Shown one piece after another: positions 6,878-35,916 of a stretch of DNA of 64,000 bases (positions are counted from its first letter, which is position 1; each line of letters begins with the position of its first letter). The DNA comes from Escherichia coli (GTDB taxonomy: Bacteria; Pseudomonadota; Gammaproteobacteria; Enterobacterales; Enterobacteriaceae). The translations under genes were made by a program, and so were the position numbers. The stretch lies in the NCBI RefSeq assembly GCF_003019035.1, contig NZ_CP027447.1. The stretch is one strand, 5' to 3'. The notes under the pieces were generated by a model that saw only the letters and a program-made list of their open reading frames with translations, made no database searches and was not told the DNA's origin.

Positions 6878-7066
6878 ATGCAGGACTATTTTTTGGAGTC
6901 TTTGAAGCTCCAGCGCATTGATTTTTTTCTTAAGCTTGTAGCGGCTAGTGAGTGTAGTGATGAAGAGAAGGGGCTGGCTCTGCAGTGGGTTTCTGAATTG
7001 ACTGATGAACTCATGGCAAAAATCAGAAGCCACGAATACAACCGCTCAATGGATGTCATCAGCTGA
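6878..7066 (+). CDS. small SOS-controlled protein (62 aa), possible Tum-like antirepressor N-terminal module
   Basis: Strong RBS AGGAGG before ATG; immediately downstream of the LexA box; followed after 10 bp by the DinI-like ORF. Confidence 0.4.
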   Translation: MQDYFLESLKLQRIDFFLKLVAASECSDEEKGLALQWVSELTDELMAKIRSHEYNRSMDVIS

Positions 7067-7076
7067 GGTGACTTTT

Positions 7077-7310
7077 ATGCGCATTGAAATAATGATCGAT
7101 AAAGAGCAGAAGATTAGCCAGTCTACCCTGGACGCCCTTGAATCCGAGCTTTACCGCAATCTGCGCCCCCTGTATCCCAAAACGGTAATTCGCATTCGCA
7201 AAGGTAGCTCTAACGGTGTGGAACTAACCGGACTGCAACTGGATGAAGAAAGAAAACAAGTGATGAATATTATGCAGAAGGTGTGGGAGGACGACAGCTG
7301 GCTGCATTAA
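7077..7310 (+). CDS. dinI: DinI-family protein (77 aa)
   Basis: MRIEIMIDKEQ...VWEDDSWLH resembles DinI (MRIEVTIAK...WESADDW) in length and at both ends; LexA box upstream. Confidence 0.75.
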   Translation: MRIEIMIDKEQKISQSTLDALESELYRNLRPLYPKTVIRIRKGSSNGVELTGLQLDEERKQVMNIMQKVWEDDSWLH

Positions 7311-8236: not shown

Positions 8237-8303
8237 CGCGCGCTTATTACTTTGATAGTACTCGGGTTATAATATGGATGACTATCTATCTCGGAGAATG
8301 TGC

Positions 8304-9956
8304 ATGTCATTGGACTATATTAAAGAACAGTTGTCAGACTTTATTTCATCTGCAGAACCTGAGGTAATGGCTATTCAGGGTGAATGGGGGATTGGGAAAA
8401 CCTATACTTGGAATACTTTCTTAAAGGAAAATAAAAATAAGATTGCATTTAATAGATATAGTTACGTCTCTCTTTTTGGTGTTAATTCATTGGACGCATT
8501 AAAATATTCCATCTTTGAAAATACAATTACAAAAGATTTTATTGGAAATAAACCTAATTTAAAAACAGCAACACAAAATACAAAGGGACTTCTTGAATCC
8601 TGCACTAGAAAGACCGCTCGTTTGTTAAAAGAAACACCTGTTGTGAAAAATTTCGCTACGACACTTGAGTCAATGTCATTTATGTCAATTACTAATGTTA
8701 TTGTAGTCATAGATGACTTAGAAAGACGTGGTAAAAATTTAGAAGTGAAAGATGTCTTAGGGTTGGTTTCTTTATTGAAAGAACAAAAAAATTGTAAGGT
8801 GGTTCTTTTACTTAATAATGGGACAAGTGGTATGGATGATTACTCCACTTATAAAGAAAAGGTTATTGATAGAGAGATTACCTATAACCCTACGCCAGAA
8901 GAATGTGCAGCTATAGCATATAAAAATAATTCTGATGTTCATAAATTATTAAGCAAATACTCCATTTCTCTGGGTATTAAAAATATTCGGATACTGAAAA
9001 AAATAGAGCGGTTTTTGCTAGCCTTGTTACCTGCTATTAACGTTAATTTTGATAAAATTGCAAATGAAGTCGCACGCTCCTTAACTTTGTATTGTTGGAG
9101 TCATTACGCATTTACTCCAGATGGAGATGTACCATCATTGGAATATATTAGAAATATGAGAAATATCTATATGCGTGATGAAAAAGAGGATGGAAAAGGA
9201 AAAAAATGGCTTAATACTTTGCTTATATATGGTTATAAAAAAACAAACGAACTTGATGAAGTCCTTATAGACATGGTTAAGCATGGATATATTGATATGA
9301 ACAATTTTCAAAGGCAAGTAAGTCTAAGAAATGATGAACTTATCCGTGATAGTAAGCGAGGTTCACTGTTTGAAGCATGGAAGCTTTTCTATAATTCATT
9401 TGAAGATAACCGAAATCAGGTTGTTGATAATCTATATCAAGCGGTGGTTGGTGGGATAGAGTATGTAACTCCAAGTGACTTGGATAGTGTTGTCGGACTG
9501 TATAGAGATTTAGATGAAAATATTAAAGCAAGTGAATTAATAAGTAAATTTATTAATTACGGCAATGATGCTCTTAAGGAATATGTCCAATCTATTTACA
9601 TGAATGTTCATCCTATAAAAGATGCTGAGTTAAAGTCAAAAATCCAAGATTATTCTATTACTTTAAATCTGGATGGTTCTATAAAGGATGTTCTAATAAA
9701 ATTATCAAGTCAGAATGGTTGGTCTGATAGGCACGAGGAAATATTGGATGCTGCCTCAGAGGATGACTACTATGATTTATTTAAAAAAGTCATTCTTGAA
9801 GGTGGTGATTCAATAATAGCCACTGCTCTTAAGTTTGGTGGGTATAGCAATGGTTCAGATAGAATGAAACGCATCGGAGAAAAAGCGAGAAATGCTTTGA
9901 TAAGAATTGGAAATGAGTCGAAGATTAATAAAATACGTGTTAGACGGTATTTGTAA
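8304..9956 (+). CDS. KAP-family P-loop NTPase (standalone, ~550 aa)
   Basis: Walker A GEWGIGKT (KAP signature GxWGxGK[ST]) and Walker B VIVVIDDLERR; no obvious transmembrane insert; AT-rich; perfect TATAAT at 8268-8273 upstream. ATG 8304 chosen for RBS spacing; the track ORF begins at 8274. Confidence 0.8.
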   Translation: MSLDYIKEQLSDFISSAEPEVMAIQGEWGIGKTYTWNTFLKENKNKIAFNRYSYVSLFGVNSLDALKYSIFENTITKDFIGNKPNLKTATQNTKGLLESCTRKTARLLKETPVVKNFATTLESMSFMSITNVIVVIDDLERRGKNLEVKDVLGLVSLLKEQKNCKVVLLLNNGTSGMDDYSTYKEKVIDREITYNPTPEECAAIAYKNNSDVHKLLSKYSISLGIKNIRILKKIERFLLALLPAINVNFDKIANEVARSLTLYCWSHYAFTPDGDVPSLEYIRNMRNIYMRDEKEDGKGKKWLNTLLIYGYKKTNELDEVLIDMVKHGYIDMNNFQRQVSLRNDELIRDSKRGSLFEAWKLFYNSFEDNRNQVVDNLYQAVVGGIEYVTPSDLDSVVGLYRDLDENIKASELISKFINYGNDALKEYVQSIYMNVHPIKDAELKSKIQDYSITLNLDGSIKDVLIKLSSQNGWSDRHEEILDAASEDDYYDLFKKVILEGGDSIIATALKFGGYSNGSDRMKRIGEKARNALIRIGNESKINKIRVRRYL

Positions 9957-9994: not shown

Positions 9995-11026
9995 CTAATT
10001 CAATGAATAATCTTTGAAGGCTATTATTTTTTTCTTTAGCCAAATATTAACTTCTACAAGTCTTTTTTGTAAAGGAATTAACTCATTTCGCACAAAAACG
10101 CAACCGGCTTTCTCTATATCCCCAAATCCCCCAACATTATTAGGCATTATCCCCATCATTTGTGGCGGTACACGGTGCGCAGCCATCATGTCATCGCGGC
10201 TGACATTTTTGATATTCAGAAACTCATCCTTCGCCGCGACTTCTGACAGAGGAATGATCTGAAGGCCGTCCTTTTTGCCGTTAGGCGAGTACATAAACAG
10301 GTTGCGGAAGTTGCCTGGACCTTTGGCGCTTTTCATCGCGTTGCGGAGATTGTTCACATCCTCCTGATTCTGCGCGGCGTCGGTCATGTACATGATGAAG
10401 CCTGCATGGCTGCCGTTGATGTAATACTTACGGCGGAACAGCGTGGCAGACTCGTTGAGCAGGGCGGATGGAATGGCAGAAAGATAGCCTGGCAGGCCGT
10501 AGATCTCCTGGTTGATGTCCGGTTCCATCAGATGAAAAATGCTGCCTTTCGTGAACTGATACGGCTGGGTTGTCATACCGTATTGCACAAACCAGTAGGT
10601 ATCCAGGTCTAACCCACGTCGGGTGTATTTTGCCAGCGCAGGCTCAAGGGCGATAACTTCACCGAATCGGTTCGTGCGTTTCTCCAGGTAGGCGTTACCA
10701 AATACCAGATAGTCCTGCACAAAACGCGAAAAAGCCTGTTGGCTGAGCAGCGGATGAGGGATATAGGTACTGGTCAGAATGTTGCACTTTACTGCAATCG
10801 GGGAACTGTGATGCACGGCAGCGCGGAAGGTGCGTGCCAGTCCGTCAAAACTTACGGGTGGCTCATACCAGCGATCCGTCTGTACGCATTCCACATAGTC
10901 CAGCAGTTCGCGGCGGTCCAGTACAGGAATGGGATCACCAAAGCTGAAAGCTTCGGCTGAAATTTGATTTTTATGCTGACTCTGTTTCGTCGTCGCAGCG
11001 CGGTTTTTCTTACTCTTTCCCATCAA
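9995..11026 (-). CDS. portal protein (P2 gpQ homolog)
   Basis: 343-aa ORF, leftward, followed by the terminase ATPase gene; P2 Q-P arrangement. Confidence 0.9.
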   Translation of the reverse strand: MMGKSKKNRAATTKQSQHKNQISAEAFSFGDPIPVLDRRELLDYVECVQTDRWYEPPVSFDGLARTFRAAVHHSSPIAVKCNILTSTYIPHPLLSQQAFSRFVQDYLVFGNAYLEKRTNRFGEVIALEPALAKYTRRGLDLDTYWFVQYGMTTQPYQFTKGSIFHLMEPDINQEIYGLPGYLSAIPSALLNESATLFRRKYYINGSHAGFIMYMTDAAQNQEDVNNLRNAMKSAKGPGNFRNLFMYSPNGKKDGLQIIPLSEVAAKDEFLNIKNVSRDDMMAAHRVPPQMMGIMPNNVGGFGDIEKAGCVFVRNELIPLQKRLVEVNIWLKKKIIAFKDYSLN

Positions 11027-12789
11027 AAAATCTCCACAATATTACTTGTATTGGCGGACTCGCCCTGCAGTGGTTCGTTAAACAGTGCGTGCATTGTTGC
11101 CCAGGCCAGATCGGCGTGGCTGGCTTCTTCGCTGCGGCTGGCTTCATAGGTTGGGCGGTTGCCGCTGGCGGTGGTGGCGCGACGGATTGCCATAAATGAT
11201 TGCGCAATGTCGGTGTGCCCGGCGTCAAACTCCAGACGGCGGTGGCTGATAATGTCGTAGGCCTTGAGTACCAGGGCGTTTTTAACGTTGGGGTTGTAAA
11301 CAAACTCCCGGACGGCAGGAAAGAACGCTTTCACGTTCTCATAAACCCCGTGACCTACACCTGTCGAGTCGATGCCGATATAGGTCACGTTGTACTGTTC
11401 GGTCAATTTTTTGATGGCATCCGCCTGGGCGCGGAAGTCCATCCCGCGCCACTGGTGACGCTCAAGAATGCGGAACTTACCGCCCGGCACGGCTGGCGGA
11501 GCCACCACCACGCATCCGGCACTGTCGCCGTTCTGCGTACCTTTCGCCGGGTCATAACCGATCCATACTTCGCGCCAGCCAAACGGGCGCAGGGCCAGTG
11601 CATGAAAGTCGGTCCAGACTTCCCAGCTGTCCACCATGCACGCCTGCAGTTCGCTGAGCGGAAACACGGACGCGAGATCGTCCACGAACTCGCACATCAG
11701 CAGGTTCTGGTATTCATCCGGGCTGTACTCCATGCGCAACTGGTCAAGGTCGAACAGGTTACAGCCGCCGCGCACCGCGTCTTCCACGGTGACTATCTGG
11801 CGGTATTGCCCGTCTGCGCACAGCAGGCCGGGGGCCAGATTGCTGTGGGACAGGTCGATGTCCACCTTGTCGGCTTTGTTGCGTCCACGGTTGAACAGCG
11901 CACCGGACCAGAACGGATAAGCACTGTGGGTCAGGCTGGATGGCGTGGAAAAATAGGTTTGTCGCCATTTCTTGTGAATAGCCATCCCGGAAGCCACTTT
12001 GCGCAGCTCCTGGAATTTCGGTATCCAGAAATATTCATCCAGATACAGGTTGCCGTGATAACTCTGGGCCGTGCGGGCATTGGTGCCGAGGAAGTAAAGC
12101 GTGGCTCCGTTAGGAAGCACCATCGGATCGCCTTTCAGCTCCACCTCCACTTCTTTGGCGAAGTCGATGATGTACTGTTTAAAGACGTGGGCCTGTGCCT
12201 TACTGGCGGAAAGGAAAATCTGGTTACGTCCGGTAAGCAGGGCGTCAATCAGGGCTTCACGGGCAAAGTAAAAGGTCGCGCCGATCTGGCGAGACTTCAG
12301 CAGGTTGCGGATGCGGTTGGTTTTTCCGGCTTCCCACCAGTGGCGCTGGTAGTTGAACATGGAGGAATGGAAGATTTCTTCCAGCTTCTCAATCTGCTCA
12401 TCGGTGAAAACATTCTTTTCCGGCTGACGGCGTGGGCCTTTATTGCGGTTGGCGACGTTAGGGTTTAAGTCGGCTTCGTTGCCGCCATTGTTAAACTTGC
12501 CGATCCGCGCGTGGCGCTCAGACTGGCGCGCCAGCAGGTCAATCTCTTTGAAATCTTTCCCTTCTTTGTGCTCCTTCATAATGAGCTGGCAGTAGCGTGC
12601 GGCGGTGGTGAGCTGCATCTGATCCAGCGGCCCATAGTCACCCCACTTGTCGCGTTTTTTCCAGCTGTGAACGGTTGCAACTTTCTCGCCCAGCATTTCA
12701 GCAATGCGGGCTACGCGGTATCCCTGAAAGTACAGCAACATGGCCTGCCGACGGGGATCGAGATCTGCGGGTGTCAGTGTGGTGTTCAT
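11023..12789 (-). CDS. terminase large (ATPase) subunit (P2 gpP homolog)
   Basis: 588-aa ORF divergent from the O-N-M-L operon; size and position match P2 gpP. Confidence 0.9.
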   Translation of the reverse strand: MNTTLTPADLDPRRQAMLLYFQGYRVARIAEMLGEKVATVHSWKKRDKWGDYGPLDQMQLTTAARYCQLIMKEHKEGKDFKEIDLLARQSERHARIGKFNNGGNEADLNPNVANRNKGPRRQPEKNVFTDEQIEKLEEIFHSSMFNYQRHWWEAGKTNRIRNLLKSRQIGATFYFAREALIDALLTGRNQIFLSASKAQAHVFKQYIIDFAKEVEVELKGDPMVLPNGATLYFLGTNARTAQSYHGNLYLDEYFWIPKFQELRKVASGMAIHKKWRQTYFSTPSSLTHSAYPFWSGALFNRGRNKADKVDIDLSHSNLAPGLLCADGQYRQIVTVEDAVRGGCNLFDLDQLRMEYSPDEYQNLLMCEFVDDLASVFPLSELQACMVDSWEVWTDFHALALRPFGWREVWIGYDPAKGTQNGDSAGCVVVAPPAVPGGKFRILERHQWRGMDFRAQADAIKKLTEQYNVTYIGIDSTGVGHGVYENVKAFFPAVREFVYNPNVKNALVLKAYDIISHRRLEFDAGHTDIAQSFMAIRRATTASGNRPTYEASRSEEASHADLAWATMHALFNEPLQGESANTSNIVEIF

Positions 12790-12835
12790 GGCACAAACCT
12801 ACAGCCTTGAATGAAGGCTTTCCCCGCCTGCGGTT

Positions 12836-12853
12836 TGTGTGGTTGTCGGTACA
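12836..12853. promoter_or_regulatory. candidate Ogr/B-activator site of a late promoter (TGTGT-N9-TACA)
   Basis: TGTGTGGTTGTCGGTACA in the P-O intergenic region fits the P2 late-promoter element TGT-N12-ACA; near-identical elements occur upstream of V and FI. Confidence 0.45.
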
Positions 12854-12931
12854 AATACCGCGCATTGTTTCACTGCCCCCATCACCGCAACCATAAGGCT
12901 CCAGTAAGTTTTTTCTAACGGAGCACGGCTC

Positions 12932-13765
12932 ATGACAGTGAAAGCAAAGCGTTTTCGCATCGGGGTGGAAGGTGCCACCACCGACGGACGCGAAATCCAG
13001 CGTGAATGGCTGGAACAGATGGCAGCCAGCTACAACCCGGCGGTGTATACCGCGCTGATTAACCTTGAGCACATCAAGTCTTATCTGCCGGACAGCACCT
13101 TTAACCGCTACGGCAAGGTGACGGCGCTGTTTGCTGAAGAAATCACGGAAGGTCCGCTGGCAGGCAAGATGGCGCTGTATGCCGACGTTGAGCCAACGGA
13201 GTCCCTGGTGGAACTGGTGAAAAAAGGCCAGAAATTATTCACCTCTATGGAAGTCAGCCCGAAGTTCGCTGATACGGGCAAAGCCTACCTGGTCGGCCTG
13301 GCTGCCACTGATGACCCTGCCAGTCTGGGCACTGAAATGCTGACATTCAGCGCCAGTGCAGCCCATAACCCGCTGGCAAACCGCAAGCAGAATCCCGCCA
13401 ATCTCTTTACCGCCGCAGAGGAAACGGTGATCGAACTGGAAGAAATCCAGGATGACAAACCGTCCCTGTTTGCCCGTGTCACGGCGCTGTTTACCAAAAA
13501 AGAGCAGTCCGATGACGCCCGGTTCTCTGATGTGCATAAGGCCGTGGAGCTGGTCGCCACTGAGCAGCAGAACCTGAGCGCACGCACCGAAAAATCCCTG
13601 TCTGAGCAGGAAGAACGCCTGTCTGAACTGGAGACTGCTCTGCAGGAGCAGCAAACCGCCTTTAACGAACTGGTGAATAAGCTGAGTCATGAAGACAGCC
13701 GCCAGGACTACCGCCAGCGTGCAACAGGCGGTAACGCCCCCGCTGACACTCTGACCAATTGCTGA
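12932..13765 (+). CDS. capsid scaffolding protein (P2 gpO homolog)
   Basis: 277-aa ORF, first gene of the rightward late operon, directly before the major capsid gene. Confidence 0.85.
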   Translation: MTVKAKRFRIGVEGATTDGREIQREWLEQMAASYNPAVYTALINLEHIKSYLPDSTFNRYGKVTALFAEEITEGPLAGKMALYADVEPTESLVELVKKGQKLFTSMEVSPKFADTGKAYLVGLAATDDPASLGTEMLTFSASAAHNPLANRKQNPANLFTAAEETVIELEEIQDDKPSLFARVTALFTKKEQSDDARFSDVHKAVELVATEQQNLSARTEKSLSEQEERLSELETALQEQQTAFNELVNKLSHEDSRQDYRQRATGGNAPADTLTNC

Positions 13766-17924: not shown

Positions 17925-18375
17925 ACTGCAGAAAGTTGACGACTGGCTGAGTGCCTTGCTGGCGAATCTGGAGCCAGCCGCAAGAAGCCGCATGGTGCGT
18001 CAGCTGGCGCAGGAGCTGCGCCGGACACAGCAGCAGAATATCAGGATGCAACGCAACCCTGACGGCAGCAGTTATGAACCGCGCAAGGTCACAGCGCGCA
18101 GTAAAAAAGGCCGCATCAAACGTCAGATGTTTGCAAAGCTGCGCACCACAAAATACCTGAAAACCGCCGCCAGCGCCGACTCTGCCAACGTACAGTTTGA
18201 AGGCAAGGTGCAGCGCATTGCCCGCGTTCACCATTACGGCCTACGTGATCGCGTCAGCCGCAAAGGACCTGAGATCCGTTACGCAGAGAGAAAATTGCTT
18301 GGATTAAATGGATGTGAAAAATTAATTCGAAAAATATTCATTATGAATTTATTTTCTGGGGATTGGCTGGCATAA
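17917..18375 (+). CDS. tail completion / virion morphogenesis protein (P2 gpS homolog)
   Basis: 152-aa ORF; last gene before the AT-rich cargo; stop codon lies inside a terminator hairpin. Confidence 0.75.
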   Translation: MAELQKVDDWLSALLANLEPAARSRMVRQLAQELRRTQQQNIRMQRNPDGSSYEPRKVTARSKKGRIKRQMFAKLRTTKYLKTAASADSANVQFEGKVQRIARVHHYGLRDRVSRKGPEIRYAERKLLGLNGCEKLIRKIFIMNLFSGDWLA

Positions 18376-18397
18376 AAGCCAGCCTTTATTTTTTTAT
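18365..18397 (+). terminator. rho-independent terminator after S
   Basis: GGCTGGC-ATAAAA-GCCAGCC hairpin followed by TTTATTTTTTT. Confidence 0.55.
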
Positions 18398-19251
18398 GTG
18401 ATGGCCCCTATCTTTTGATTGTAATAACTATAATCAGCATGTTCTTCTGTATAAAAAATCTCAAATGCAGACAAGATGTTTGCGTAAAAACTATCCTTGG
18501 ATATAGAGGTTTTTTTATTGATGGATGCCAAAAAGTTTGTTATAAATCTTAATGATGCTGAGAAAAGAAAGTGCCCTTTCACCCAATGATTTATAGATGT
18601 ATTTTCTGGGAATTGAATGTTGTTTTTTTCTGCCAAACCATTAGTAGTAAACGATTCAGGTAGTCTATTGATATATTCATCTATTTTTTTCTTGCATATA
18701 TTGTATGAATTTCTTGATTGCATAAAACGATCACAGGAATCACCAATTACGGAGCATCCTAATTTATTTAAATGATTGTGAATATCTAGTATTATTAAGT
18801 TCTCAATGTTGCTATAGAAGTTAGAAAGCCAATTTCCTACATCTATTTCCTGCATTTTTTTTGTGCAAAAACGGCCTGTGTTTTTGAGTATGTGTGATAT
18901 GATTTTTTCATCAATGATTGTGTTTTCTATTGAATATCCCTTTGTGTAAATAATATTTGTATGCTTTACTATGTTGTCAGAAAAATGGTTTAGATCCGAA
19001 TCTCTGGCAACTATGGCGTTTATTTCTCCTGAGGTTATTTTTTCGATATATGGTTGTAAAGCTTCACATCCACCAACATCTTGAACTTCTACATTAAAAC
19101 GACCATTTTTTTTAAAAATTATTTCCCAAAAAGCAATGTCATCTTCACCTTCAACATAGACCATAATATCAGCATCATAAAATAAACTGATCACATTTTC
19201 CGCTTCATTAGACCAAGAAAAGTTTTCTGCATTAGAATCATTGATTAGCAT
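18394..19251 (-). CDS. Toprim/DUF4435-like protein (AriB-like), 285 aa
   Basis: Toprim-like acidic motifs VYVEGEDD (conserved Glu) and IVARDSD (DxD); overlaps the upstream ATPase gene by 14 bp; very AT-rich. Confidence 0.65.
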   Translation of the reverse strand: MLINDSNAENFSWSNEAENVISLFYDADIMVYVEGEDDIAFWEIIFKKNGRFNVEVQDVGGCEALQPYIEKITSGEINAIVARDSDLNHFSDNIVKHTNIIYTKGYSIENTIIDEKIISHILKNTGRFCTKKMQEIDVGNWLSNFYSNIENLIILDIHNHLNKLGCSVIGDSCDRFMQSRNSYNICKKKIDEYINRLPESFTTNGLAEKNNIQFPENTSINHWVKGHFLFSASLRFITNFLASINKKTSISKDSFYANILSAFEIFYTEEHADYSYYNQKIGAIT

Positions 19252-20494
19252 TGACTAATCTCTCCATATTGAAAATGGCGTTTTTATATTTAGATGCAAC
19301 TTCAGGAGAATGGGTTGCAGCAATAATTTGTGCATTAGGATTTAATTTTTTTATGGCAGGGATAATATTTCTTTGCCATTGAATATGTAAGGAAAGCTCA
19401 GGCTCATCAGTTAGGAAAATATATTGTTGCCCTCTTTGTAAGAGGGTCTCAATGAATAAAATTAGCAGTTGTTTTTCACCAGAAGATAAACTTTCTAAAA
19501 CTATTGGCCCATAGGTGTTATTTATGACTAACAATCCCGATTGAAAATGAAATTCTTTATCGGTGATAAAATTTCTTAGTATGCTTAAGAATTGTTCTAT
19601 TGGAGAAAATATTTTTGATGTTTTCTCTTTTGAAGTTAATGACATTTTGATTATTTTTTGTGTTTTTCTCAATGCTTCGATCGAACGAATATCAAAGCCT
19701 CTTTCACTTTTATTCTTTAATTCTGAAATGGTATTATTAATTGTTTCAACATGAAAGCTGATTTTTTTACGAATGTTTTGATCAATAGCATTTAACTGTG
19801 TGTATGCATTAAGGAGGTTTTGTTTTTCTTCCTCTTTGTTAAAGTTAATGTTGTAAGCAGGATTCTCCATATCTTCCTTGCTATAAAGTATTGATGCCAG
19901 AACCTCTTTTTGAAGTTCTAATGCGATATCTCTGGCTTTCTGGGATAGTTCAAGTTGATATTTTGTAAGTTCCTGTATTAATTCTGATAACTTATAGTCA
20001 ACAGGGTTGATAAAACGAGAGCCATATTTATCTTTAACTTCAAAATCATCACTATTTCTTAATCTGTAAACAGATAAAGAAGAAAGCGAGACTAGTTTTG
20101 CTAGTTCTGTTCTTAGTTCTTCTGTTTCATCATGCACTCTACGTCTATAACTAAGAGATATTCTTCTATCATCAGTGTTAAATAAACGAATTGTGTGTTT
20201 TTTAGATGAAAGCTGATATTCTATTTTGGAAAATGGAGATGTATCGCTTTCAAGTTTTTTGACTTTGATTGTTTTTGTCTTTTTTTTATCTTTAAGTTTT
20301 ATTTCGGCACTATTGAAATCAGCATTGTTAATACTGTCCAAATCAAGGGATAATATTGAGTGCAGAAGGTTCATAAAGGTTGTTTTACCCGTGCCATTTC
20401 GGCCTATAATAATGTTTACATCATCATTAAATGAGCAGGAACAGTTTAATCGCTGCCAAAAGCCATTAATTGTGACGCTTTGAATTTTATACAT
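19238..20494 (-). CDS. ABC/SMC-like ATPase (AAA_15/AAA_21-type, AriA-like), 418 aa
   Basis: Walker A GRNGTGKTT, ABC-signature-like LSSGEKQ, Walker B YIFLTDEPELSLH, H-loop IIAATHSPEV, with a charged coiled-coil-like insert between them. Confidence 0.75.
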   Translation of the reverse strand: MYKIQSVTINGFWQRLNCSCSFNDDVNIIIGRNGTGKTTFMNLLHSILSLDLDSINNADFNSAEIKLKDKKKTKTIKVKKLESDTSPFSKIEYQLSSKKHTIRLFNTDDRRISLSYRRRVHDETEELRTELAKLVSLSSLSVYRLRNSDDFEVKDKYGSRFINPVDYKLSELIQELTKYQLELSQKARDIALELQKEVLASILYSKEDMENPAYNINFNKEEEKQNLLNAYTQLNAIDQNIRKKISFHVETINNTISELKNKSERGFDIRSIEALRKTQKIIKMSLTSKEKTSKIFSPIEQFLSILRNFITDKEFHFQSGLLVINNTYGPIVLESLSSGEKQLLILFIETLLQRGQQYIFLTDEPELSLHIQWQRNIIPAIKKLNPNAQIIAATHSPEVASKYKNAIFNMERLVNANQ

Positions 20495-20541: not shown

Positions 20542-20559
20542 TGTGTCATTCTCAGTACA
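20542..20559. promoter_or_regulatory. candidate late-promoter activator site upstream of V (TGTGT-N9-TACA)
   Basis: TGTGTCATTCTCAGTACA; same pattern as the sites upstream of O and FI. Confidence 0.4.
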
Positions 20560-20606
20560 ATTATGCCGTTTGGAAGATATTATTTCAAATGTTTAATATA
20601 TACGGT

Positions 20607-21185
20607 ATGAACGCACAATTAACCGAAATCATGCGCCTTATCACCAATCTGATCCGCACTGGGGTAGTCACCGAAGTGGACCGGGAGAATTGGCTTTGCC
20701 GGGTGAAAACGGGCGACCTTGAAACTAACTGGATCAGTTGGCTGACGCTGCGTGCCGGGAATGCCCGCACATGGTGGCGACCATCGGAAGGTGAGCAGGT
20801 GGTGCTGCTGAGTCTTGGCGGCAATCTGGAGACTGCCTTTGCGCTGCCCGCTGTCTATTCGAATCAGTTCGCACCACCGTCGACGTCGGCGGACGCCTGC
20901 GTGACAGAACATCCTGACGGTGGCTGGTTTGAATACGAACCCGCCACCGGGCGCTGGTATGTCAAGGGCATCAAATCAATGGTCATTGAGGCCGCTGACA
21001 ACATCACCATGAAAACCAGTGAGTTTGTACTGGAGGCTGACCGCACGCGCATTAACAGCGAAGTGGTGATCAATGGTGGCGTTACCCAGGGCGGCGGAGC
21101 GATGAGTTCTAACGGGATCGTGGTTGATGTGCATCAGCATACTGGCGTCCTGAAAGGCGGCGATACAACCGGAGGCCCGGTATGA
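20607..21185 (+). CDS. baseplate spike/assembly protein (P2 gpV homolog)
   Basis: 192-aa ORF from ATG 20607 (MNAQLTEIMRL...); first gene of the V-W-J-I-H-G operon. Confidence 0.85.
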   Translation: MNAQLTEIMRLITNLIRTGVVTEVDRENWLCRVKTGDLETNWISWLTLRAGNARTWWRPSEGEQVVLLSLGGNLETAFALPAVYSNQFAPPSTSADACVTEHPDGGWFEYEPATGRWYVKGIKSMVIEAADNITMKTSEFVLEADRTRINSEVVINGGVTQGGGAMSSNGIVVDVHQHTGVLKGGDTTGGPV

Positions 21186-25016: not shown

Positions 25017-26054
25017 TTATATTTGCCTACCTCCTAATAAAATGTGTGAGGTGTATTTGTTGGTTTTCAATAACCTTGCTACAATTATACAGGTGGTTAC
25101 AATAAGGAAAACAAATGAAGGGGTTATGATGAGGTTATATATGAGTGGATTTTCGCATAGGTTATTAATGTTCACGTATGCCTCTATTCTGTGAAAAATA
25201 AACGACGAGATTATATAGATGGGAAAGGTGTAAGTACCGACAAAGGATGTGGCTCGTATAAATAAATTATTTTTCGTTGATAAAAATGTATAAGCATATA
25301 TAAGCGATATGCTTCCGGCGAAGCCAATGAAGTAGCGAAATATAATAATGAATGATTGATGCCAGAAATCAACATTCTCATATGTCATTTTAGATATGTA
25401 AATATAATACTCTCTATTCCATAGGAGAAGCATACCAATCCATGTTAATACGGCTAACACACCAATTTTGTGCCTATTTCTAGAGGCAAAATCTAAAATG
25501 CGATGGGCGGATATACCAGCGATAAAATAAGGGGCCATAAATTTAATTTTGTCCATATTCCAATCATCTCCATATGCAAGGGATATACTAAATATCAGTA
25601 AATAAAGCACCACAGAATATTGTTTGCTTATTGAGTGACAAATAGTATAAACAATAGATACTGCAAAGAGTGCAGAAAGGAACCAGAAGGCGTAGATGGC
25701 TCCATATCTAATATTTATTAAATTTATATCTCTTCCCACAAAAATGGATTCAGCAATGAACCATGCAATGGATGGGATTATTAACTGCATGAATTTTCTT
25801 TTGATAATTGATGATGGTTTTCTCTTGAGAGAAAAATAGAAAAGATAGCCGCTAAGCAGCATAAAAAATGGCATGTGGAAGCTGTAAATGGTAATAAATA
25901 ATGGGTTGTCAAAAAAATTGAAACTATCTTTTTTTACAAACTGAATTGAATGGCCCCACACGACAAAAATTATAGCTAATCCTTTCATTGAGTCTATAAT
26001 GGAATTTCGAGTGCTGGGTGTCTCTGTTATAATAAGATGTGGTTCGTTTTTCAT
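25017..26054 (-). CDS. acyltransferase family 3 integral membrane protein (O-antigen/LPS O-acetyltransferase-like)
   Basis: 345 aa, highly hydrophobic multi-TM; N-terminal region GLAIIFVVWGHSIQF typical of acyltransferase-3; very AT-rich; opposite strand to tail genes. Confidence 0.75.
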   Translation of the reverse strand: MKNEPHLIITETPSTRNSIIDSMKGLAIIFVVWGHSIQFVKKDSFNFFDNPLFITIYSFHMPFFMLLSGYLFYFSLKRKPSSIIKRKFMQLIIPSIAWFIAESIFVGRDINLINIRYGAIYAFWFLSALFAVSIVYTICHSISKQYSVVLYLLIFSISLAYGDDWNMDKIKFMAPYFIAGISAHRILDFASRNRHKIGVLAVLTWIGMLLLWNREYYIYISKMTYENVDFWHQSFIIIFRYFIGFAGSISLIYAYTFLSTKNNLFIRATSFVGTYTFPIYIISSFIFHRIEAYVNINNLCENPLIYNLIITPSFVFLIVTTCIIVARLLKTNKYTSHILLGGRQI

Positions 26055-26386: not shown

Positions 26387-26706
26387 TGCTTATTGGCTAT
26401 GTACGTGTATCAACAAATGACCAGAACACTGATTTGTAATGCAATGCGCTGAACTGCGCGGGATGTGCGCGGATTTTTGAGGATAAAATCAGTGGCACTA
26501 AGTCCGACAGGCCGGGACTGGCTGCAGCTCGCGCCAAAGGCAGAGTAGGTGGACGCCGTCCTAAGTTGACCACCGAACAGTGGGCACAGATTGGACGTTT
26601 ACTCGAGGCCGGAGAATCAAGACAGCGTATTGCACTGATTTTTGATGTAGGCGTTTCTACCATTTATCGAAAATTTCCGGCAAATAAGAGCAATGAATCT
26701 CCCTGA
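26387..26706 (+). pseudogene. DNA invertase (Hin/Gin/Pin/Cin serine recombinase) pseudogene
   Basis: N-terminus MLIGYVRVSTNDQNTDL then in-frame TAA (26438-26440) where Hin has Gln; RPGL joins directly to AAARAKGR (catalytic core of ~100 codons missing); C-terminal HTH GGRRPKLTTEQWAQIGRLL...STIYRKF is in a different frame (1-nt shift near 26640). Confidence 0.8.
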
Positions 26707-26754: not shown

Positions 26755-26772
26755 TGTGTGAATAACGGTACA
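26755..26772. promoter_or_regulatory. candidate late-promoter activator site upstream of FI (TGTGT-N9-TACA)
   Basis: TGTGTGAATAACGGTACA, centred ~85 bp upstream of the FI start codon. Confidence 0.45.
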
Positions 26773-26848
26773 ACTGCGCTTAGCTGTTTGTCAGGCACAA
26801 TAACTTCAACATAGGGCGAAGCCTAATCCAATCAGGAGGTTCGCCACT

Positions 26849-28021
26849 ATGGCTCAGGATTACCACCACGGGGTGCGCGTAGTTGAAGTCAACGAAGGCA
26901 CCCGATCCATTACCACGGTGAGCACCGCCATCGTGGGTATGGTCTGCACGGGCGATGATGCCGATGCAAAAATGTTTCCTCTTAATAAACCCGTGCTGAT
27001 CACTGATGTGCTGACTGCCAGCGGTAAAGCGGGTGAGTCCGGTACGCTGGCCCGTTCGCTGGATGCCATCGCTGACCAGGCAAAACCCGTGACCGTTGTT
27101 GTGCGTGTGCCGCAGGGTGAAACGGAAGAAGAAACCACGACCAATATCATCGGAGCAGTGACCGCTGAAGGTAAAAAAACAGGCATGAAAGCCCTGTTAT
27201 CTGCCCAGTCACAGCTCGGCGTTAAACCGCGCATTCTCGGCGTGCCAGGTCACGACACGAAGGCGGTAGCTACTGAGTTGCTGAGCGTGGCGCAAAGCCT
27301 GCGTGGGTTTGCTTACCTGTCAGCGTATGGTTGCAAGACGGTGCAGGAAGCAATCACTTACCGTGAAAACTTCAGTCAGCGTGAAGGAATGCTGATCTGG
27401 CCCGACTTTACTGGCTGGGACACGGTGCTGAATGCCGAAGCAACGGCTTATGCCACCGCCCGTGCGCTTGGTCTGCGCGCTAAAATTGACGAGCAGACCG
27501 GATGGCACAAAAGCCTGTCCAACGTGGGCGTGAACGGTGTCACCGGAATTTCTGCTGATGTGTTCTGGGATCTGCAGGACCCGGCAACCGATGCAGGTCT
27601 GCTGAACCAGAACGACGTCACCACGCTTGTGCGTAAAGACGGTTTCCGCTTCTGGGGTTCCCGCAGCCTGAGTGATGACCCGCTCTTTGCCTTCGAAAAC
27701 TACACCCGCACGGCGCAGGTGTTGATGGACACGATGGCAGAAGCACACATGTGGGCGGTGGATAAACCGCTTAACCCGTCGCTGGCCCGCGACATTATCG
27801 AAGGTATCCGCGCCAAAATGCGCAGCCTGGTCAGTCAGGGCTATCTCATTGGTGGTGATTGCTGGCTGGATGAGTCGGTGAACGACAAAGACACGCTGAA
27901 AACCGGAAAACTCACCATCGACTATGACTACACGCCAGTGCCGCCACTTGAAAATCTGATGCTGCGCCAGCGCATCACCGATCAGTACCTGGTGAATTTC
28001 GCCAGCCAGGTCAGCGCGTAA
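26849..28021 (+). CDS. tail sheath protein (P2 gpFI homolog)
   Basis: 390-aa ORF followed by the tail tube gene. Confidence 0.9.
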
Positions 28022-32589: not shown

Positions 32590-33686
32590 ATTTCAGCTCT
32601 GAACTGCTTAACAAAGGCAACAAAACTCCCGCATTCAGCATCAGTATTGAGGGCAGGGATATCACCACTGTGCTGGATAACCGCCTGATGAGTTTGACGC
32701 TGACGGATAACCGGGGCTTTGAAGCGGACCAGCTTGATCTGGAGCTGGATGACGCTGACGGAAAAATCGTGCTGCCGCGCCGTGGTGCGGTTATTACGCT
32801 GGCGCTGGGCTGGAAGGGGCAGCCGCTTTTCCCGAAAGGGGCATTCACAGTGGACGAGATTGAACACACTGGCGCACCGGACCGCCTGACTATCCGGGCG
32901 CGAAGTGCTGATTTTCGGGAAACGCTGAATACCCGCCGTGAAAAATCGTGGCATAAGACCACCGTCGGGGAAGTGGTGAAGGAAATAGCCGCGCGGCACA
33001 AGCTGAAGATGGCACTGGGTAAAGACCTGTCGGATAAGCCCGTGGAGCATATAGACCAGACTAATGAGAGTGACGGCAGTTTTCTGATGCGGCTGGCGCG
33101 ACAGTACGGTGCCATCGCGTCGGTGAAAAATGGCAATCTGTTATTCATCCGGCAGGGGCAGGGCAAAAGCGCCACTGGTAAACCTCTGCCAGTGATCACT
33201 ATCACACGCAAGGACGGCGACAGTCACCGATTTACCCTGGCAGATCGCGGAGCCTACACGGGCGTAATTGCCAGCTGGTTGCATACCCGCGAACCTGCGA
33301 AGAAAGAAAGCACCACGGTGAAGCGTAAGCGCAGAACTAAGAAGCAGAAGAAAGAGCCGGAAGCGAAGCAGGGCGATTACCTGGTGGGTACGGATGAAAA
33401 CGTGCTGGTACTTAATCGCACTTATGCCAACCGGAGCAACGCTGAACGGGCAGCGAAAATGCAGTGGGAACGCCTGCAACGCGGCGTTGCGTCATTCTCG
33501 CTACAACTGGCGGAAGGTCGGGCAGATCTCTACACGGAAATGCCTGTGAAGGTCAGCGGCTTTAAACAGCCGATAGATGATGCGGAATGGACCATTACGA
33601 CTCTGACACATACCGTCAGCCCGGATAACGGTTTTACGACCAGTCTGGAGCTTGAAGTGAGGATTGATGATTTCGAAATGGAATGA
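32586..33686 (+). CDS. late control/tail protein D (P2 gpD homolog)
   Basis: 366 aa; last structural gene before ogr. Confidence 0.85.
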   Translation: MNFSSELLNKGNKTPAFSISIEGRDITTVLDNRLMSLTLTDNRGFEADQLDLELDDADGKIVLPRRGAVITLALGWKGQPLFPKGAFTVDEIEHTGAPDRLTIRARSADFRETLNTRREKSWHKTTVGEVVKEIAARHKLKMALGKDLSDKPVEHIDQTNESDGSFLMRLARQYGAIASVKNGNLLFIRQGQGKSATGKPLPVITITRKDGDSHRFTLADRGAYTGVIASWLHTREPAKKESTTVKRKRRTKKQKKEPEAKQGDYLVGTDENVLVLNRTYANRSNAERAAKMQWERLQRGVASFSLQLAEGRADLYTEMPVKVSGFKQPIDDAEWTITTLTHTVSPDNGFTTSLELEVRIDDFEME

Positions 33687-33776
33687 TTCTTCGCAATGGA
33701 GAACTTTTAAGTTTGCAAAATGGAATAATGCGGTATCATTATTGTGAATTTAGCAAAAATGGGGAGAACTCGAAAA

Positions 33777-33995
33777 ATGATGATTTGCCCACTGTGTGGA
33801 AGTGCCGCCCATACTCGCAGCAGTTTTCAGGTATCTTCATTGACCAAAGAGCGTTACAACCAGTGCCAGAACATTAACTGCAGCCATACTTTTGTTACCC
33901 ATGAAACTTTTGTTCGTTCGATTGCAACGCCAAAAGAGTCAAATCCGGTTCAGCCGCATCCAATGAAATCAGGACAGGTGGCGCTCTCTCTTTGA
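33777..33995 (+). CDS. ogr: Ogr/Delta-family zinc-finger late transcription activator
   Basis: MMICPLCGSAAHTRSS...CQNINCSHTF matches the Ogr C-x2-C...C-x4-C zinc finger; last phage gene before the host junction. Confidence 0.85.
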   Translation: MMICPLCGSAAHTRSSFQVSSLTKERYNQCQNINCSHTFVTHETFVRSIATPKESNPVQPHPMKSGQVALSL

Positions 33996-34230: not shown

Positions 34231-35916
34231 TTATCCTAATCCTGGCCATACCATGACGATGATTGTCCCTGCCAGCGTCAGCAGGACGTTGGCGATTGCA
34301 TAGGTGCCCGCATAGCCCAGCGCCGGGATGTTACTGCGAGCTGTATCACTGATGATCTCCATTGCCGGCGCGCAGGTGCGTGCGCCCATCATTGCGCCGA
34401 ACAACAGTGCGCGGTTCATTCGCAATACATAAGCACCGAACAAGAAGCAGATAACCACTGGCACCAGACTGACAATCAATCCGGCAATCAACATTTGACC
34501 GCCAATCGCGCCCAGGCCGTTATTAATACCGCTACCGGCGCTCAGACCAACGCCTGCCATAAACACCATCAAGCCGAACTCTTTCACCATGCTTAATGCA
34601 CCTTGCGGAATGTAACCGAAGGTCGGGTGGTTAGCACGCATAAAGCCCAGCATAATTCCGGCGAATAACAACCCGGCAGCGTTCCCCATGCCGAAACTGA
34701 ATGTGCTGAACTGGAAGGTGATCATCCCGATCATCAGCCCAATAACAAAGAAGGCGCAGAATGCCAGCAAGTCAGTGACCTGGCTGTGAATCGAGATAAA
34801 GCCGATGCGATCGGCGATGGTTTTTACCCGGCGGGCATCGCCGCTGACTTGTAAAACGTCACCTTTGTTAAGCACGACGTTGTCATCAATCGGCATCTCA
34901 ATCTGGCTACGTATGACGCGGTTAAGGAAGCAACCGTGATCGGTCAACTTCAGTTGTGCCAGGCGTTTGCCAACAGCGTTATGGTTTTTAACGACCACTT
35001 CTTCAGTGACGATTCGCATGTCGAGAAGGTCACGATCGAAAACTTCTTTGCCATTACGGAAACTGGGATCGAGTCGGGCGTGGGCGTCGGGATAGCCTAC
35101 CAACGCTATTTCATCGCCCATTTGTAGTACGGCATCACCGTCTGGATTTGCCAGAATCCCGTTACGCCGAATACGTTCAATGTAACAGCCAGTTTGTCGA
35201 TAAATACCCAGTTCACGCAGATTTTTGCCGTCGGTCCAGGCCACCAGCTCCGGGCCGACGCGGTAGGCGCGGATCACCGGCAAATAAACCTTACGGTTGG
35301 CATCTGTGTCCAGGCCACGTTCGCGGGCGATTTGCTGGGCGCTGGTCTGTAAGTCCTGATGCTGCAATTTCGGCAAGTAACGCGCACCAACAATCAAACT
35401 CACCAGACCGATTAAATAGGTTAAGGCATACCCGAGGCTCAGATTATCCAGTGCCAGTGAGAGCTGCCTGCTTTCCATGCCGGAATGACGCAGTGTATCG
35501 CCAGCACCGACCAAAACCGGTGTTGACGTCATAGAGCCTGCTAACATACCGGCCGTCAGGCCAATATCCCAGCCAAACAGCTTACCTAACCCTAAGGCGA
35601 TGACCAGCGCACTGCCAACCATCACCAGTGCTAACATTAGGTAATTTTTCCCATCGCGAAAAAAAATGGAAAAAAAGTTCGGTCCGGCTTCGACCCCGAC
35701 GCAGAAAATAAACAGCATAAAGCCAAGATTAAGCGCGTCGGTGTTAATGCTGAAATGTTGTTGGCCTAATAACAGCGATACGACTAAAACGCCAATGGAA
35801 TTACCCAGTTGGATCGAACCAAGTCGTAATTTCCCGAGACATAGCCCAAGCGCGAGGACCACAAATAATAACAGAATGTAATTCCCATTTAACAATTCGG
35901 CGACGTTTATATTCAC
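34231..35916 (-). CDS. ybjL: putative transporter YbjL (AAE antiporter family)
   Basis: 561-aa membrane protein with two TrkA-C-like soluble domains; position and length as in E. coli K-12. Confidence 0.85.

Follow-up and report, generated by a model that had tools for sequence, protein, structure and literature searches.

Putative Ogr-type activator sites at the late operons of a P2-like Escherichia coli prophage

Three near-identical elements lying 5' of the late genes O, V and FI are, with a probability that we put at about 0.88, the upstream activator sites of P2-like late promoters, the site at 12836 most likely serving P as well as O. The window, by which we mean the whole 64-kb stretch of DNA that was analysed, contains a P2-like prophage (Peduoviridae, Wadgaonvirus/Fels-2-type) in an E. 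coli chromosome. The elements are known biology, textbook P2-type late regulation in a related prophage. The first-pass annotation had taken them for P2-type late-promoter elements at the expected places, accompanied by a cognate ogr gene, and this core reading is borne out by a promoter geometry shared with P2 and 186 and by conservation of the sites in relatives.

The three elements and their rarity in the window

Sequence checks placed TGTGTGGTTGTCGGTACA at 12836-12853, TGTGTCATTCTCAGTACA at 20542-20559 and TGTGTGAATAACGGTACA at 26755-26772, all on the + strand and exactly as first described. All three are intergenic and lie 5' of O (ATG 12932), V (ATG 20607) and FI (ATG 26849), and the identities originally given to these genes were confirmed with Pfam. 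Gene O, the capsid scaffold (12932-13765, + strand; Phage_GPO, 1.2e-113), is the first gene of the O operon; gene V, the baseplate spike (20607-21185, + strand; Phage_base_V, 1e-17), whose start codon agrees with annotated homologues, is the first of the V operon; and gene FI, the tail sheath (26849-28021, + strand; Phage_sheath_1, 8e-33), is the first of the F operon, which extends to D at 33686. Gene P, the terminase large subunit (11023-12789, - strand; Terminase_6N/6C/Terminase_5), is the first gene of the leftward P-Q operon, and Q was also confirmed by Pfam. A terminator-like hairpin, GGCTGGCATAAAAGCCAGCC followed by a T-run (18365-18384, + strand), stands at the end of gene S and is likely the end of the O operon; a strong hairpin after S is consistent with a new operon starting at V.

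Scanning both strands of the 64-kb window for TGTGT-N9-TACA returned exactly three matches, at 12836, 20542 and 26755, against 0.27 expected from dinucleotide shuffles, and no further matches appeared at random positions; three matches were reached in 0 of 100 shuffles. When one mismatch was allowed, the 12 matches observed against 11 expected amounted to background, and the loose literature motif TGT-N12-ACA, with 10 matches observed and 15.6 expected in the window, is not enriched by itself, so that significance rests on the extended match together with position. TTGT-N12-ACAA gave four matches against 1.2 expected, three of which are the sites at 12836, 20542 and 26755. A weight matrix was also built from 20 sites of other genera (P2, 186, PSP3, Kp4882-2, ENT4, Kp4874-2 and YenM42.18). 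The window sites score 10-11 with this matrix, against a mean shuffle maximum of 13.9, and the V site fell outside the top 25 matches of the window scan. Since the matrix ranks the window sites poorly, sequence alone is weak and would not convince without position and conservation. The signal comes from how far the identity of the three copies extends and, most of all, from their location.

Other matches in the window were set aside as chance. The best weight-matrix match, scoring 19.7 against a shuffle maximum of 19.9, falls at 34955-34972 within the host gene ybjL, which adjoins ogr, and a TGT-N12-ACA at 12778-12795, overlapping the P start codon, is wrongly positioned for any promoter and is one of a class for which 15.6 matches are expected. 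Within gene D, 280 bp upstream of ogr, TGCGTCATTCTCGCTACA (33488-33505) departs from the motif by one mismatch, TGC for TGT, and has 15 of 18 bases in common with the V site; as matches with one mismatch are at background, it is probably a chance match as well.

Promoter geometry and conservation of the sites

The start codons of P, O, V and FI were located in 11 other Peduoviridae genomes, and the distances from site centre to ATG were measured. For O, V and FI these are 87.5, 56.5 and 85.5 bp in the window; 95.5, 56.5 and 82.5 bp in P2; 87.5, 55.5 and 81.5 bp in SopEPhi; and 85.5, 55.5 and 80.5 bp in YenM42.18. In 186 they are 87.5 bp for O and 81.5 bp for FI, the pattern having no match at V. 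The window is thus within 0-8 bp of P2 and 186. In the P2 record, transcript starts are annotated for P, O, V and F, and the centres of the activator sites lie about 55-57 bp away from them; the B-protein sites of the 186 record are annotated likewise, about 55 bp from the transcript starts. Each of the four window promoters has a -10-like hexamer whose start is 43.5-45.5 bp away from a site centre. Given these hexamers and the match in distances, the late-promoter geometry of the window reads as standard P2-type, with transcript starts placed by inference.

The putative O activator site, TGTGTGGTTGTCGGTACA, is centred at 12844.5, and a candidate -10-like hexamer, ACCATA (12890-12895, + strand; AACATA in SopEPhi), begins 45.5 bp from that centre, with a predicted transcript start near 12901-12903. 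The site-to-ATG distance here equals that of the annotated pV promoter of 186. For V, the putative site TGTGTCATTCTCAGTACA is centred at 20550.5 and the -10-like TAATAT (20594-20599, + strand) stands only 7 nt upstream of the ATG, so placed that the V mRNA is predicted to be leaderless; the P2 record annotates its V transcript start at the V start codon. At FI, the putative site TGTGTGAATAACGGTACA is centred at 26763.5 and is followed after 44.5 bp by a candidate -10, AACATA (26808-26813, + strand), which predicts a start near 26819-26821. The surrounding AACATAGG is common to two otherwise diverged FI promoter types. We also considered ACAATAAC (26797-26804), which can be aligned to the -10 region of 186 pJ and would bring the FI site one helical turn closer. 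This was rejected, as almost every close relative reads CAATCA at that place, whereas AACATAGG, a further 10 bp downstream, is conserved and has the standard spacing. Late promoters of the P2 type have a poor -35 and a weak -10 and are silent without their activator. Consistently with this, a sigma-70 consensus scan, a weak test for such promoters, listed none oriented toward O, P, V or FI here.

Conservation of the sites was followed at each of the three positions. At the P-O site, 80 loci with 99-100% identical O proteins contained 15 intergenic variants, a set close enough to show micro-variation rather than to provide a deep comparison; in the variant sites, such as GGCTGTCGG, GGTTATCGG and GGTTGTTGG, interior positions alone change and the TGT and ACA arms never do. 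Among 30 distinct FI promoters of the window type, none of the six arm positions is variable and four of the 12 interior positions are (4, 13, 14 and 15), as against 29 of 46 positions just upstream of the site. The V site was compared across 80 loci whose V proteins are 97-99% identical to that of the window and which display at least 11 mutually unrelated upstream sequences, each with a single TGT-N12-ACA whose centre is 54.5-57.5 bp from the ATG of V. We regard this retention of the V site in unrelated surroundings as the strongest test of conservation that sequence comparison offered. In E. coli L3Cip3, a PARIS cassette 77% identical to that of the window has TGTACCAGCTATAACACA at the place of the V site, with the TGT and ACA arms kept and seven interior bases changed. 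In 500465-1, Kp4849-2 and YenM42.18 the pattern TTGTR-N10-YACAA occurs three times per genome, at these same three positions.

Two observations concern the surroundings of the FI site. In one relative (L199) the FI activator site is missing, and the upstream sequence is replaced as far as a point some 10 bp short of the -10-like AACATA by what may be an insertion or rearrangement, one that would put the F operon promoter out of action. In the window, the segment at about 26600-26700, just 5' of the FI site, resembles on our own, suggestive reading the 3' end of a DNA-invertase gene, and an invertase fragment is annotated at the equivalent place in SopEPhi.

The elements had initially been said both to fit and to extend the P2 motif. 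The fit stands, all three being perfect matches to TGT-N12-ACA, a consensus of Ogr/Delta-type sites quoted in the Smp131 paper (PMC3931495); the extension holds only in part, as relatives vary. In their sites position 4 is G or A and thus always a purine, position 5 is free, the base before ACA (position 15) is T or C and thus always a pyrimidine, T precedes TGT, and A usually comes after ACA. Variants include TGTATCAGCACTGATACA, TGTGTGAATAACGACACA and TGTACCAGCTATAACACA; among the V sites are TGTATC...ATACA, TGTGCC...ATACA, TGTACC...CCACA and TGTGAC...ATACA, and among the FI sites are some that end in GACACA, GATACA or GGCACA. The TGTGT/TACA extension is therefore best read from these alignments as lineage-specific and TTGTR-N10-YACA, usually then A, as the family-wide form; the right arm in P2 and 186 is mostly CCA instead of ACA. 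For annotating the late promoters of Fels-2/Wadgaonvirus-type prophages in E. coli, Klebsiella and Salmonella, TTGTR-N10-YACA would be a cleaner motif to work with; its centre is to be sought 54.5-57.5 bp from the ATG of V and at about 85 bp from those of O and FI.

Could the three matches be accidental, or belong to a regulator other than Ogr? That they have no regulatory role would agree with the loose motif not being enriched, with one-mismatch matches at background and with a matrix from other genera that does not single the sites out. We nevertheless consider chance extremely improbable, as it would have to account for three exact matches where 0.27 are expected and no shuffle reached three, for their all being intergenic and spaced from the leading genes of the late operons much as in P2 and 186, and for arms that are invariant in relatives and a site held at a fixed distance within unrelated upstream sequences. 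Binding by a host regulator that recognises TGT...ACA, such as CRP, is in our view scarcely more probable. The left arm TGTGT does resemble the CRP half-site TGTGA, but in the CRP consensus, TGTGA-N6-TCACA, TGT and ACA are 10 bp apart, as against 12 bp in the three sites and in every relative. The sites moreover accompany an ogr gene and, within phage genomes, occur at the starts of late operons alone.

The P-O and S-V intervals

The first-pass annotation had reported no equivalent site for the leftward P-Q operon. This was a misreading, for the P2 and 186 records annotate one site shared by divergent promoters. The P2 record has a single 'activator binding site; pO, pP promoters', with the P and O transcript starts 55.5 bp either side of its 18-bp core, TGTGTCAGTGATAAGCCA, and the 186 record has one B-protein site for 'activation of pV and p12 promoters'. 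In Smp131, PP' and PO' are given at the same coordinates on opposite strands (PMC3931495). The P-O interval contains exactly one match to the site pattern in nine of the 11 other Peduoviridae genomes and none in Kp4845-1 and ENT4. From these annotations, the Smp131 coordinates and the single match in nine genomes, it is most likely that the site at 12836 also serves the P promoter and is bidirectional. A search of the 142-bp P-O interval of the window found no second TGT-N12-ACA-like site, and a P-specific site near 12866 (TTGTTTCACTGCCCCCATCA) was rejected after hand reading and scans since an ACA arm at N12 is lacking on both strands.

On the P side, the distance from the ATG to the site centre is 78.5 bp in P2, 186, PSP3 and Kp4882-2, whereas it is 55.5 bp, the distance of the expected transcript start, in the window, 500465-1, Kp4849-2 and SopEPhi. 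P2 has an annotated 23-nt P leader, and the P side of the window is 23 bp shorter, so that its P promoter is no simple copy of a characterised one. The start codon itself is homologous, the N-terminus of P aligning from residue 1 with P of P2 and 186. Reading along the minus strand, the site is followed by 34 nt, then the -10-like TAGGTT (12796-12801, - strand; 43.5 bp from the site centre), then the 6-nt spacer TGTGCC and the ATG of P; by hand count, the P promoter of P2 has TAGCCT 42.5 bp from its site. TAGGTT, whose promoter function is putative, does not differ among 82 close sequences, and the SopEPhi type has TATGTT instead; the 6-nt spacer, by contrast, is variable. With the ATG 55.5 bp from the site centre and an invariant hexamer 6 nt before it, we are somewhat inclined to predict that the P mRNA of this lineage is leaderless or nearly so, with the ATG at 12789 as its transcript start. 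The P2 V transcript, annotated as starting at its start codon, supplies a precedent.

The shorter spacing could also mean that P-Q has a separate promoter and site elsewhere, or that it uses the 12836 site near -36 with a normal leader, through the hexamer AAGCCT (12815-12820, - strand). By hand reading AAGCCT resembles the -10 of the P2 P promoter, TAGCCT, and an AGG 9-11 nt upstream of the P ATG is a candidate ribosome-binding site. We think this rather unlikely. The interval holds no second site; the key final T of AAGCCT is gone in 14 close relatives, which read AAGCCG or AAGACG, and in the SopEPhi type, which reads AAGCCG and lacks the AGG too; and TAGGTT is the hexamer that is kept, at a P2-like spacing. 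AAGCCT was accordingly rejected as the P -10 for want of conservation, and the shared site with a start at or near the P ATG remains the reading that we prefer.

The S-V interval of the window carries a PARIS anti-phage system, ariA-ariB, in an AT-rich segment (18394-20494, - strand): ariA at 19238-20494 (PADLOC AriA, 2e-38) and ariB at 18394-19251 (DUF4435; PADLOC AriB, 2e-21), both on the - strand. The two genes pass the AAA_15/AAA_21 and DUF4435 thresholds that define PARIS in PMC9122126. A version of the cassette at least 99% identical occurs in two E. coli genomes, and a 77%-identical version occupies the same position in nine. The interval is a cargo hotspot, with the unrelated upstream sequences described above, at least 11 in number, preceding near-identical V genes (loci L094-L173; 20495-20606 in the window). 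Homology to phage relatives begins again at 20606, a single nucleotide ahead of the V ATG, and the entire V promoter therefore lies within the exchangeable segment.

A candidate sigma-70-like promoter, TTGAAA-17-CATAAT (20560-20588, - strand; 10 of 12 consensus matches), points toward ariA-ariB. Its -10 abuts the V activator site, its predicted start, at about 20553, lies inside that site, and both of its hexamers are kept in the 77%-identical cassette. From the position of this start within the V site, Ogr might interfere with leftward transcription of ariA-ariB. It is tempting to join the peculiarities of the lineage in one scheme, a leaderless P expressed from the shared site and a V promoter borne by each S-V cassette, with Ogr switching transcription late from defence to baseplate; as a joint proposal we hold this to be doubtful. 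A terminase mRNA without a leader and a V promoter carried along by defence cassettes would be modest, testable additions to what is known.

The late circuit and its relation to known phages

The ogr gene (33777-33995, + strand) encodes a 72-aa zinc-finger late activator of the Ogr/Delta type (PF04606 Ogr_Delta, 5e-22). Its Cys4, Cys7, Cys30 and Cys35 form a CX2CX22CX4C arrangement that is invariant in the alignment with homologues; the protein shares 51% identity with P2 Ogr and 54% each with 186 B and PSP3 Pag, and several Klebsiella phages have exactly this Ogr. Upstream of ogr, a consensus scan found a candidate sigma-70-like promoter, TTTGCA-16-TATCAT (33712-33739, + strand), and the P2 record annotates an ogr promoter at the equivalent position. 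Delta, Pag and B bind DNA, and Ogr contacts the C-terminal domain of the RNA polymerase alpha subunit; P2 late transcription depends on both the activator and that domain (rpoA109).

By homology, the circuit would be expected to run as follows. Ogr would be made from its own sigma-70-like promoter and later, as in P2, also by read-through of the F operon. During lytic growth it would occupy the partially palindromic TGT-N12-ACA sites, each centred about 55 bp 5' of a transcript start, and bring in the sigma-70 RNA polymerase of the host at promoters whose -10 is weak and which lack a usable -35. This would switch on the head and lysis genes of the O operon, the baseplate and fibre genes of the V operon and the tail genes of the FI operon and, with the 12836 site activating both P and O, three sites would cover four late operons. 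With start codons at the predicted transcript starts, P and V would be translated from leaderless or nearly leaderless mRNAs. Judged from its sequence, the late regulatory circuit looks intact, having an activator gene and sites for all four late operons. This bears on whether the prophage can still make virions, and on whether P4-like satellites could be helped by it or exploit it.

Other features of the prophage deserve mention. Its immunity region is of the 186 type, with a CI repressor (Phage_CI_repr and Phage_CI_C domains; 412-987, - strand), and a DinI/Tum-like gene lies at 7005-7310; together these suggest a prophage that is SOS-inducible, unlike P2. In 186 the promoter of B, the ogr counterpart, is directly repressed by CI. 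A 560-aa KAP-family P-loop NTPase (8274-9956; PADLOC candidate PDC-S49, 4e-25) is encoded between the replication gene A region and the portal gene Q, the position of old/tin in P2. Between G and FI, the position of Z/fun in P2, an Acyl_transf_3 acyltransferase (25017-26054, - strand) is a possible lysogenic-conversion gene.

The nearest phage records are Escherichia phage 500465-1 (Wadgaonvirus) and a large Klebsiella Peduoviridae group, with SopEPhi (Felsduovirus) as the next relative. Structural proteins are 98-99% identical to those of the window in 500465-1 and Kp4849-2 and 85-97% identical in SopEPhi. In the SopEPhi/Fels-2-type and Wadgaonvirus phages (500465-1, Kp4849-2) the P-O interval is homologous, with the site, TGTGTGGTT..CGTACA as in the window, at 55.5 and 87.5 bp. 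The FI promoters of 500465-1 and Kp4849-2 are of the same type as that of the window, with TGTGTGAATAACGACACA as their site. The V promoters of SopEPhi/Wadgaonvirus prophages differ (TGTATCAGCACTGATACA or TGTGCCACTGCTGGCACA), and these prophages have no S-V cargo; their records annotate no regulatory features. The Ogr of 500465-1 (L002; 29211-29429) is only 63-67% identical to that of the window, despite the near identity of the structural proteins, an identical P-O site and an FI site that differs at two bases. From this diverged activator beside near-identical structural proteins and sites, ogr appears to have been exchanged independently of the promoters that it serves.

Compared with the characterised systems, the window has the same four operons and gene order as P2 (PP, PO, PV and PF, activated by Ogr), and an identical distance of 56.5 bp from V site to V ATG. 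It differs from P2 in its immunity region and in its sites, which are perfect TGT-N12-ACA where P2's own are imperfect, TGT-N12-CCA or CAA. Coliphage 186 has late promoters p12 and pV, which share a B site, p32 and pJ, all activated by B; its left arm at the P-O site, TTGTGTGG, is identical to that of the window while its right arm is CCA, and it has a leader on the side of the P homologue where the window is predicted to have none. In the satellite P4, the promoters Psid and PLL respond to Delta, a protein of two domains in tandem, or to the Ogr of the helper; their sites are of the same TGT-N12-ACA class as those of the window (consensus in PMC3931495).
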